The notes beneath the pieces are model-generated. The model was not told the DNA's origin and ran no database searches. It was given only the letters and a program-made list of their open reading frames with translations. Of a stretch of DNA of 64,000 nucleotides, positions 43,011 through 43,950 are shown in pieces. This DNA is from Candidatus Latescibacterota bacterium (GTDB lineage: Bacteria > Latescibacterota > UBA2968), in assembly GCA_965116885.1 (NCBI GenBank), contig OZ220741.1, forward strand, positions 1,952,001 to 2,016,000, read 5' to 3'. Position 1 is the stretch's first letter. Each line of letters opens with the position of its first letter. A program made the translations under genes and the position numbers.

Positions 43011-43047
43011 TTAGTGCCGTGGCCACGCAATATGAGACCAGTTTCCA
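43011..43047. repeat. 37-bp direct repeat, copy 1 (orphan 3' end of the C45 gene)
   Basis: 34/37 identical to 43914-43950; minus strand encodes GNWSHIAWPRH-stop. Confidence 0.9.
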
Positions 43048-43063
43048 TCCTAAACAAATACTA

Positions 43064-43080
43064 AGCAAAAATTATGCCAA
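43064..43080 (-). promoter_or_regulatory. Sigma-54 (-24/-12) promoter
   Basis: TTGGCATAATTTTTGCT with exact GG-N10-GC spacing, facing the permease at 42985. Confidence 0.8.
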
Positions 43081-43143
43081 AAAATCAAATATTGATATAA
43101 CAACAGGTTATGAAAAATCACCCAAAATGGACATCTTAAAAAG

Positions 43144-43180
43144 TGTCCGATTTTGATACAGTGGTGTCCGAAAATGAACA
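43144..43180. promoter_or_regulatory. Tandem enhancer-like sites for a sigma-54 activator
   Basis: TGTCCGATTTTGATACA and TGTCCGAAAATGAACA (TGT-N10/11-ACA), 65-100 bp upstream of the -24 element. Confidence 0.65.
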
Positions 43181-43196
43181 CTGAGAGGAGGAGATC

Positions 43197-43889
43197 TTGC
43201 GAATTTCAGCGATTTCTTTTGATGGGGATATGACCTTGTGGGACTTCTATAAGGTCATGCGACATTCGCTAACGCATACATTGAGGGAATTGCGCCGGCA
43301 TGTTCCGACACAACGCGCTTTAGACCTTACTGTTGAGGATATGATTGCGATTCGCAATCGGCTTGCTGAGGAGGTGAAAGACGAGGTCTGGAATCTCGAG
43401 GAGATCAGACGGCTGGCATTTGAGAAGACGCTTGAATATGTTGGATGTCCGGACGGTGATCTGGCCATGCATCTGAATAAAATATATCTGAAGCATCGTT
43501 TCGAAGATATTGAGTTATACAAGGATGTTGTACCTGCACTTGGTATTTTGGCCCAGCATTTCAAGATCGGATTTTTGTCAAATGGGAATAGTTATCCGGA
43601 ACGCTGTGGCCTTGCAGGCCGTTTTGACTTTGTTGTCCTTGCCCAGGATGTGCGTGTTGTGAAGCCTGATCGAAGAATTTTTCAGATTACCGCACAGAGA
43701 GCGGGCTGTCCGCTGGCGCAGCTATTACATGTGGGAGATTCCCTGGAACAGGATGTTGCAGGTGCAGGTGCAGCCGGAGCGCATACGGTCTGGCTAAATC
43801 GCGAAGGTCTGACAAATGATACGGGGATCAAGGCAGATTACGAAATCAGTTCATTGACTGACCTGCCCACGATATTGGGAGTAGGTTGA
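43197..43889 (+). CDS. HAD-superfamily hydrolase
   Basis: SFDGDMT, LSNGN, KPD, HVGDSLEQDVAGA; TTG start with GAGGAG RBS. Confidence 0.9.
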   Translation: MRISAISFDGDMTLWDFYKVMRHSLTHTLRELRRHVPTQRALDLTVEDMIAIRNRLAEEVKDEVWNLEEIRRLAFEKTLEYVGCPDGDLAMHLNKIYLKHRFEDIELYKDVVPALGILAQHFKIGFLSNGNSYPERCGLAGRFDFVVLAQDVRVVKPDRRIFQITAQRAGCPLAQLLHVGDSLEQDVAGAGAAGAHTVWLNREGLTNDTGIKADYEISSLTDLPTILGVG

Positions 43890-43913
43890 AGTTGGCAAAT
43901 CATTGACAAGTTC

Positions 43914-43950
43914 TTAGTGCCAGGGCCACGCAATATGAGACCAGTTCCCA
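43914..43950. repeat. 37-bp direct repeat, copy 2 (3' end of the C45 gene)
   Basis: 34/37 identical to 43011-43047. Confidence 0.9.

Follow-up and report, generated by a model that had tools for sequence, protein, structure and literature searches.

A probable gene-end fossil in a sigma-54-type promoter leader, and its likely reuse in a rearranging permease locus of sponge-associated Latescibacterota

We describe a pair of short direct repeats, and the gene locus around them, in 64,000 nucleotides of the genome of a sponge-associated member of the Latescibacterota (Candidatus Latescibacterota bacterium, assembly GCA_965116885.1, contig OZ220741.1, positions 1,952,001 to 2,016,000; the whole stretch is called the window below, and the genome G000). 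Sponge metagenomes contain this stretch. One copy of the repeat is the 3' end of a gene of the C45, or acyl-CoA:6-APA acyltransferase (AAT), family; the other, an orphan, lies between a sigma-54-type promoter and a gene encoding a MacB_PCD/FtsX double permease (perm1). From a comparison of sister species we consider it likely that the orphan is a fossil of the C45 3' end, left by segmental duplication and deletion, and that such gene-end copies, here termed tails, later provided the homology for unequal exchange that rewired permease control, with neither a dedicated recombinase nor programmed switching.

The repeats occupy positions 43011-43047 and 43914-43950 of the window and agree at 34 of 37 bases, a match reported in an earlier, sequence-only reading of the window and reproduced here (0 and 3 mismatches to the searched copy; two or more matches in none of 100 shuffles of the window). 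The match stretches to 36 of 40 bases at 43008-43047 and 43911-43950, with a spacing of 903 nt (repeat family D10); the repeats are 92% identical, and their longest unbroken identity is about 23 nt. That reading had proposed looking for further copies of the 37-mer in the genome; a search with the 23-nt core, allowing up to three mismatches, recovered just the known pair across all 5,557,749 bp. The native copy (43914..43950, minus strand) comprises the last 11 codons and stop of the C45 gene (GNWSHIAWPWH, then stop), whose 3' end encodes CGNWSHIAWPWH before the stop. The orphan (43011..43047, minus strand) reads GNWSHIAWPRH and ends in a stop at 43011-43013, 25 nt upstream of the perm1 ATG at 42985. 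Among 43 C45 homologues found at E <= 1e-5, 31 end in W-x4-6-WPW, some of them only about 30-45% identical, and the distant homologues with this end carry the labels Anaerolineaceae, Zixibacteria and Latescibacteria; this marks the tail as native to the C-terminus of the C45 subfamily in question, and the copy in the perm1 leader as the derived one. The closest named homologue of C45 is from Candidatus Latescibacteria. The orphan also bears the marks of a gene remnant: it matches the end of a full-length gene, lacks a start of its own, has decayed in relatives and stands at irregular junctions.

To place the orphan in a wider context we mapped, by tblastn and blastn, the 12-18 kb flanking every C45 orthologue and two additional tail sites; the large permeases fell into five groups of orthologues, named perm1 to perm5. 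In the loci fetched from 13 genomes, the 23-nt tail core (up to four substitutions) occurs in 22 copies, 11 at C45 ends and 11 as orphans, and a whole-genome search with the core pattern gave 21 hits, spread over 12 of 21 genomes (G000 counted), and no control matches. Every copy is confined to this one locus and lies on the C45 strand, and alleles of sister species hold from one to four copies. Their boundaries vary, with at least four types on the left and at least six on the right. On the left, 11 copies continue into the C45 body; seven (G000, G003, G015, G009, G014, G006 and G017) follow the sigma-54 -12 element plus about 20 nt; a copy in G009, together with a degenerate one in G007, follows the perm4 3' flank plus 13 nt similar to the last part of the promoter-side 20-nt piece; and three (G009 copy 3, G006b copy 2 and G007 copy 1) follow three different deletions of a second block made up of a 195-aa gene and C45. 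On the right, the stop is followed by the A-rich ribosome-binding site of perm1 in G000, G009 and G020, and at other copies by a 24-nt spacer and the end of the HAD gene; the HAD end is reached with the spacer replaced in G015 and G006, and with the stop deleted in G013 and G005; six genomes (G003, G015, G009, G014, G006 and G017) have the stop, the spacer, a ribosome-binding site and perm3, with a truncated form in G005; and further copies place stop and spacer before the perm5 end, a GrpB-like gene, or another 45 nt and then perm1 (G006).

Several of these junctions are informative as to history. The perm3 leaders carry the tail, its stop and the 24-nt C45 spacer, from which it follows that the repeat once measured about 59 nt and is old; the G006 leader matches the C45 tail and spacer in 51 of 63 ungapped columns. 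Most perm3 leaders have lost 6 nt between two TGGC repeats. The junction of promoter plus 20 nt with the tail is common to seven genomes, spanning both C45 clades, G006 and G017, and is thus likewise old. The orphan of G000 and the pre-perm1 orphan of G009 share a tgg>cgg change and the junction of 'cactaa' with 'aaaaa..gaaagg'; the tail-perm1 junction was therefore inherited, and it equals the native C45-perm1 junction of G020. Two left and two right contexts are found in each of their four possible pairings, C45 with perm1 (G020), C45 with spacer (G000 and most others), promoter with perm1 (G000) and promoter with spacer and perm3 (the six genomes above), which by four-gamete logic calls for at least one exchange inside the tail. 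Orphans decay in the manner of non-coding DNA, as judged from the 6-nt perm3-leader deletions, a larger deletion of about 16 nt in G005 and the residue in G004, where 'ACTAA' and the spacer are kept before an intact perm3; the orphan would appear to be neutral. Between tails of one genome there is no sign of gene conversion (in G003, for example, the C45 copy has TTGAG and the leader copy TTGCG). Midpoint-rooted trees of perm1 and C45 set G000, G003, G009 and G015 (with G007) apart from G020 and G006, with little resolution inside the G000 clade.

The locus in G020 is of particular relevance. According to the sequence-only reading, recombination between the copies would leave C45 immediately ahead of the permease, with a single repeat and no sigma-54 promoter, and such an allele is present in this genome: the C45 tail is followed by 21 nt and perm1, there being one repeat copy and no sigma-54 promoter preceding perm1. 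In blastn comparisons, the match to C45 (window 45446-43911) and that to the orphan and perm1 (window 43047-40557) have 40 nt in common, which fall on this one copy, and alignment of the junction shows the G000 C45 end on its left and the G000 orphan and perm1 leader on its right. The permease is intact (799 aa, 96% identical). Since G020 retains the module of HAD, enhancer and promoter downstream of perm1, before perm4, it is no simple excision product of a locus like that of G000.

When read in the direction of C45, with HAD and perm5 on the opposite strand and "module" denoting enhancer plus sigma-54 promoter, the thirteen genomes show twelve distinct arrangements. G000 has C45 with its tail, HAD, module, tail, perm1, perm2 and GrpB. 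In G003 C45 and tail are followed by a mostly deleted HAD, module, tail, perm3, perm1 and perm2, and the same order is seen in G015, with an internal deletion in HAD and an IS4-type insertion in perm2. G009 is longer, with C45 and tail, HAD, module, perm4, tail, perm1, the 195-aa gene, tail, a HAD fragment, module, tail and perm3. G007 begins with the leader and ATG of the 195-aa gene joined to a tail, then carries a GrpB-like gene, a GNAT gene, the 195-aa gene, C45 and tail, perm5, HAD, module, perm4, a degenerate tail and perm3. G020 has C45 and tail, perm1, a cut-down alpha/beta-hydrolase, HAD, module and perm4. In both G013 and G004, C45 and tail are followed by HAD and GrpB, and enhancer, promoter and permeases are absent. 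G014 has C45 and tail, perm5, module, tail, perm3, perm2 and GrpB, and G005 has C45, a HAD fragment, module, truncated tail and perm3. In G011 C45 breaks off at codon 339, where a perm2 fragment is joined to it, and a GrpB fragment comes next. G006 presents C45 (split by an IS256-type transposase gene) with its tail, perm1, perm2, perm5, module, tail and perm3, and farther on the 195-aa gene, tail, HAD, an ABC exporter and perm4. G017, which has no C45, carries the promoter without its enhancer, then tail, perm3 and GrpB.

Between the repeats of G000 lie 866 bp that contain a HAD gene, a sigma-54-type promoter and a 39-bp double dyad; the sequence-only reading had described this content, gene, promoter and enhancer with no recombinase, and all of it was found, HAD being the sole gene of the segment. 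The HAD-family hydrolase gene (43197..43889, plus strand; Pfam PF00702 / PF13419) converges with C45, retains a DxDxT motif and has GGAGG 6-7 nt upstream of a TTG start at 43197, which must be the start because a protein begun at the first in-frame ATG would lack the catalytic aspartates of that motif; just 15 nt separate the end of the enhancer dyad from the TTG. HAD is truncated or deleted in G003, G015, G005 and the second copy of G009. The C45 gene (43914..44948, minus strand, 344 aa) belongs to Pfam PF03417 (E 5.6e-11, 43.0 bits against a curated cut-off of 23.2), and its stop is followed by a 24-nt spacer (43890..43913, minus strand) that in relatives also follows the orphan tail before perm3. 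A search of the G000 genome found no second C45 gene. Orthologues with 84-92% identity are present in 11 of 20 sister species, and a phylum-wide search recovered them in 12 of 168 genomes and one of 49 genera, G000 counted; none of those 168 genomes carries one outside the genus, and a search for related loci returned the same genus and a 31%-identical Phycisphaerales gene. Variant ends of C45 are also seen in other genomes (proteins P0004, P0005, P0012 and P0041): in G013 and G005 (L025, L028; compare P0004, P0005) the stop is deleted and the open reading frame enters the antisense HAD end by 14-15 codons, giving 358-359 aa; a second variant, of 206 aa, has the middle of C45 joined out of frame to the tail; and a 210-aa protein combines a methyltransferase domain with the C-terminus of C45.

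The promoter, TGGCATAATTTTTGCT (TGGCAT-N5-TTGCT; 43064..43079, minus strand), is the sole exact match in the window, is directed at perm1 and is kept in the orthologous modules of relatives. The double dyad (43143..43181) lies 63 nt upstream of it as a putative site for an enhancer-binding protein, and the genome encodes rpoN (DNA-binding domain, E 4e-60); a GG-N10-GC element, an upstream dyad and rpoN are thus all present, as expected of a sigma-54-dependent promoter. The dyad recurs in 11 copies in the genome at up to five substitutions (10 at up to three), and ten of the eleven stand about 60-70 nt upstream of TGGCA(C/T)-N5-TTGC, the eleventh having a weaker -24/-12-like element much farther downstream. 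Most of these modules precede genes for MacB/FtsX-type permeases or an ABC ATPase; the other ten lie at 23932, 268432, 581164, 1195528, 1208380, 1229549, 1234784, 2025854, 4854591 and 5153525 of the chromosomal sequence (G000:C1). The 11 near-identical modules look like the regulon of one enhancer-binding protein, or else a promoter cassette that duplicates. Contig depth over 43010-43183 rises about 8- to 16-fold, and loose ends fall at 43136-43141 and 43181-43182, as fits a multi-copy element. About six of the modules are preceded by a common terminator-like hairpin (..GGCACATTG..CAATGTGCC.. and a T-run). In its GG-N10-GC element, a double dyad about 65 nt upstream, rpoN, and 11 modules at MacB/FtsX and ABC genes, this predicted system resembles NtrC-type, enhancer-dependent sigma-54 promoters.

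If the C of the downstream GC is numbered -12, transcription would start near 43053, and the orphan would occupy about +7 to +43 of a predicted leader of some 68 nt. An A-rich spacer of 25 nt with the perm1 ribosome-binding site (42986..43010, minus strand) follows, joined to the orphan by the same junction as that behind the true C45 in G020; one RNA contig spans 42667-42986 and is uninformative as to the transcription start. The permease gene perm1 (40586..42985, minus strand, 799 aa) has orthologues of at least 95% identity in six genomes, G000 included, and is followed by perm2 (38033..40522, minus strand, 829 aa; MacB_PCD/FtsX), and by GrpB (37453-38040). Permease paralogues are only 40-47% identical to perm1, which leaves the promoter modules, repeated units of about 200 bp, and the tails as usable homology for exchange. 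Double permeases of this type, of about 800 aa, are greatly expanded in the genus, with 17-61 first-look candidates per genome. The tail itself was considered as a second sigma-54 promoter and rejected, TGGTCTCATATTGC having GG-N9-GC, one base below the usual spacing; scans of 42800-44100 for sigma-70 promoters and terminators gave nothing above shuffle expectation that bears on the repeat.

Comparable scars occur elsewhere in the locus. A copy of the HADpnk tail (window 45453-45487) stands behind a methyltransferase gene in G015 and G009; G007 has the leader of the 195-aa gene fused to a C45 tail; the alpha/beta-hydrolase of G020 is cut down, and C45 of G011 is fused to a perm2 fragment. Insertion sequences (IS) have entered as well: an IS256-type (Transposase_mut) gene splits C45 in G006 (L030, 4134-5342), where a TnpB/IS605 OrfB gene also lies amid cargo genes (L030, 1297-2415), and an IS4-type DDE transposase splits perm2 in G015 (L021, 10937-12013). 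The varied tail boundaries, these other scars and the IS insertions together indicate a region shaped by duplications and deletions with arbitrary ends.

We infer the following order of events. In an ancestor of the genus, a segmental (tandem) duplication, or a second C45 that was later deleted, would have put a unit of about 59 nt, made up of tail, stop and 24-nt spacer, before a MacB/FtsX permease, with the join point some 20 nt downstream of the -12 element, and this founding junction would have left the module of HAD, enhancer and promoter between direct repeats. The tails would then have served as short homology, at least one unequal homologous exchange joining the old promoter-tail half to the tail-perm1 half; the product would be the G000 order of promoter, orphan, 25 nt and perm1, with the promoter re-assigned from perm3 to perm1. 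A simple possible route leads from a G006-like order (C45, tail, a bracket running from perm1 and perm2 to the module, tail, perm3), in which unequal exchange between tail copies would duplicate the bracket and yield module, tail, perm1 and perm2; loss of the first perm1-perm2 pair would then produce the order of G000. As the outcome, perm1 would be read from the sigma-54 promoter in G000, and in G020 it sits directly behind the C45 block.

A number of points weigh against this reconstruction. Relatives hold neither an intact second C45 nor an intact tandem duplication, so that the founding event is a reconstruction. G020 is no simple deletion derivative, and the history must comprise several steps regardless of which state came first. 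The order of the arrangement states is not rooted by the trees of perm1 and C45, and the phylum-wide search returned no outgroup that bears C45. About 23 nt of uninterrupted identity is near the minimum for RecA-dependent exchange, so that exchange would be rare. Moreover, the persistence of the junction between promoter plus 20 nt and tail across both clades, G006 and G017 could also reflect some use of the sequence within the leader.

Closest to the favoured reading is in-place decay, a sub-variant that differs in the founding junction only: a full second C45 between promoter and permease would have been deleted down to its last 37 nt. The sequence-only reading had named a full second C45 in relatives as the observation that would point to such decay of a paralogue. 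No such gene was seen, although three orphans (in G009, G006 and G007) are clearly remnants of a deleted second block of 195-aa gene and C45, so that deletion of this kind demonstrably took place at three other sites. An order of promoter, C45 and permease appears in none of the genomes compared, however, and the single left junction shared by seven genomes needs one event only, for which a tandem-duplication junction accounts equally well; we regard decay in place as a doubtful but tenable version of events. The broader alternative of duplication followed by deletion, which the sequence-only reading had offered beside integration, fits the evidence. That the tail was instead co-opted, being kept behind the promoter for messenger stability, translation or open-complex formation, could be argued from its retention after promoter plus about 20 nt before perm3 in six relatives and before perm1 in G000, beginning about 7 nt past the predicted start. 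Yet the leader has no stable or unusual fold (minimum free energy -13.9 kcal/mol, z -0.69; 44 of 200 shuffles fold equally well), and a reading of the copies revealed no conserved leader open reading frame; the copies hold substitutions and the deletions already described, with 5 nt left before the intact perm3 of G004; perm1 is intact with no tail ahead of it in G003 and G015, and perm4 has the same promoter with a different leader. We judge a leader function quite improbable.

The sequence-only reading had named as one option an integration in the style of attL/attR, whereby the HAD-promoter segment would be an integrative element, or the remnant of one, that entered at the C45 3' end and brought a replacement gene end. 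The 866-bp segment is indeed bracketed by direct repeats of a gene's 3' end, G020 supplies an empty junction with one copy, and HAD lies on the strand opposite to its neighbours. Against this, a Pfam scan of 41 open reading frames (17.8-64 kb) contained no integrase, resolvase, recombinase or transposase, and of nucleases just an HNH endonuclease at 57235-57657; inverted repeats were looked for at the segment ends and none was found; the 22 tail copies have many boundaries where a single crossover point would be expected; the enhancer-promoter belongs to a set of 11 regulon modules on the chromosome and is not the cargo of an insert; HAD stands beside C45 in G013 and G004, which have a single tail and no second repeat; and the core occurs twice in the genome, with all copies in the genus at this locus. 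Integration is therefore not supported, and we deem it very improbable. Hardly any weight falls to a programmed or high-frequency switch, in which recombination between the 37-mers would delete the HAD-promoter segment in some cells and toggle perm1 to read-through from the C45 block. The recombined form is fixed in G020 with an intact perm1, which bears out the sequence-only reading as far as a C45-permease allele without the promoter is concerned, and the four-combination pattern attests past exchange within the tail. A deletion would be irreversible unless the segment were re-integrated, and the repeats are short and 92% identical. The assembled contigs of four runs (X1, X2, X3 and the RNA run X16) over 40400-45600 show the G000 arrangement across both junctions and no 903-bp joint (43047 to 43950), which is weak evidence, since contigs hide rare variants; the joints that were listed, 43189 to 43823 and 43243 to 43431, are unrelated internal HAD deletions. 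Exact-pattern scans of metagenome contigs (JGI) for the tail-perm1 junction and for the tail core yielded 0 stretches each. An unlikely extension of the favoured reading is that tail-plus-spacer repeats act as portable recombination handles, by which ordinary homologous recombination swaps promoter modules and permease cassettes at appreciable frequency; if true, the locus would be a recombinase-free cassette exchanger that diversifies a sigma-54-controlled MacB/FtsX permease within populations, possibly with DNA from co-resident sponge strains.

Set beside known systems, the locus resembles the gene-fragment scars that tandem duplication and deletion leave in paralogue arrays undergoing birth and death, a general concept, in having an orphan gene-end piece at a novel junction, flanking paralogous genes and promoter modules, neutral-looking decay and further scars nearby; it is unlike them in that the fragment lies within the first 40 or so nt of a sigma-54 leader, was inherited across most of a genus and was reused as homology. 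With the att sites of elements that insert at 3' ends (islands of the tRNA or tmRNA type) it shares repeats that equal the 3' end of the target gene and an empty site in a relative, but it has no integrase and no fixed core, its supposed cargo is a resident regulon promoter and HAD, and its copies are at one locus. A transposon with target-site duplication was rejected, as there are no inverted repeats at the ends and no transposase, and the repeat spans 37-59 nt; target-site duplications measure from a few bp to about 14 bp. Integron cassette arrays come to mind because the small co-oriented cargo genes (GNAT, NUDIX, APH, methyltransferases, GrpB, HAD) vary in order and in presence from one sister species to the next; here, however, gaps of mostly 1-42 nt are too short to hold attC, the junctions take the form of irregular deletion scars, and no IntI-type integrase was found within the window, the range searched for intI, so that an integron was also rejected. 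Deletion and duplication between short direct repeats, for which RecA-dependent exchange near minimal homology and replication slippage are known routes, is matched by repeats of 37-59 nt lying 0.9-8 kb apart and by alleles that resemble exchange products, the difference being that the event is deduced from comparison between species only.

Other features of the window and of related loci may be recorded. Over window positions 37453-64000 and in the loci L020-L032, co-oriented cargo genes (NUDIX, two methyltransferases, two APH-type kinases, HAD/PNK3P, GNAT, C45 and GrpB) vary in order and presence between sister species and leave short orphan tails and leaders. In G017 (L032, tail at about 7995 as oriented), which lacks C45, the enhancer is deleted and the leader of the 195-aa gene is joined to the middle of the module. 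The cargo array of the window includes a 432-aa ankyrin-repeat protein (51601-52899) with an internal tandem duplication of 281 nt that is 87% identical (D1, 51831-52402), and among its permease genes lie a UPF0175 / DUF3368 gene pair (53062-53968), probably an antitoxin and a PIN-like toxin, and the small HNH endonuclease gene (57235-57657). GC-rich, palindromic REP-like repeats (GGGACGGCACAGGGGCCGTCCCCTAC and its partner, GGGCGACC..) occur in both orientations at cluster borders (13216-13282, 17688-17786, 23786-23888 and 37422-37453). A dense minus-strand cluster at 17790-35473, with three sulfatases, seven PhyH-family dioxygenases, an arylsulfotransferase, a GHL6/fucosidase-like enzyme and a DUF6785/6784 membrane protein, is probably a locus for the utilisation of sulfated glycans.

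Gene-end remnants, the join points of duplications and exchange between short direct repeats are all well known, and the present case reveals no new mechanism; it is a well-resolved new instance in an uncultured sponge symbiont. For annotators, it explains an odd orphan end of an open reading frame and cautions against calling an att site. It offers an example in which a few dozen bases of a gene end have persisted genus-long in a promoter leader and then, as we reconstruct it, served in the re-assignment of that promoter, and it marks a hypervariable locus of cargo and permease genes, together with an 11-member sigma-54 regulon of MacB/FtsX transporters, in sponge-associated Latescibacterota.

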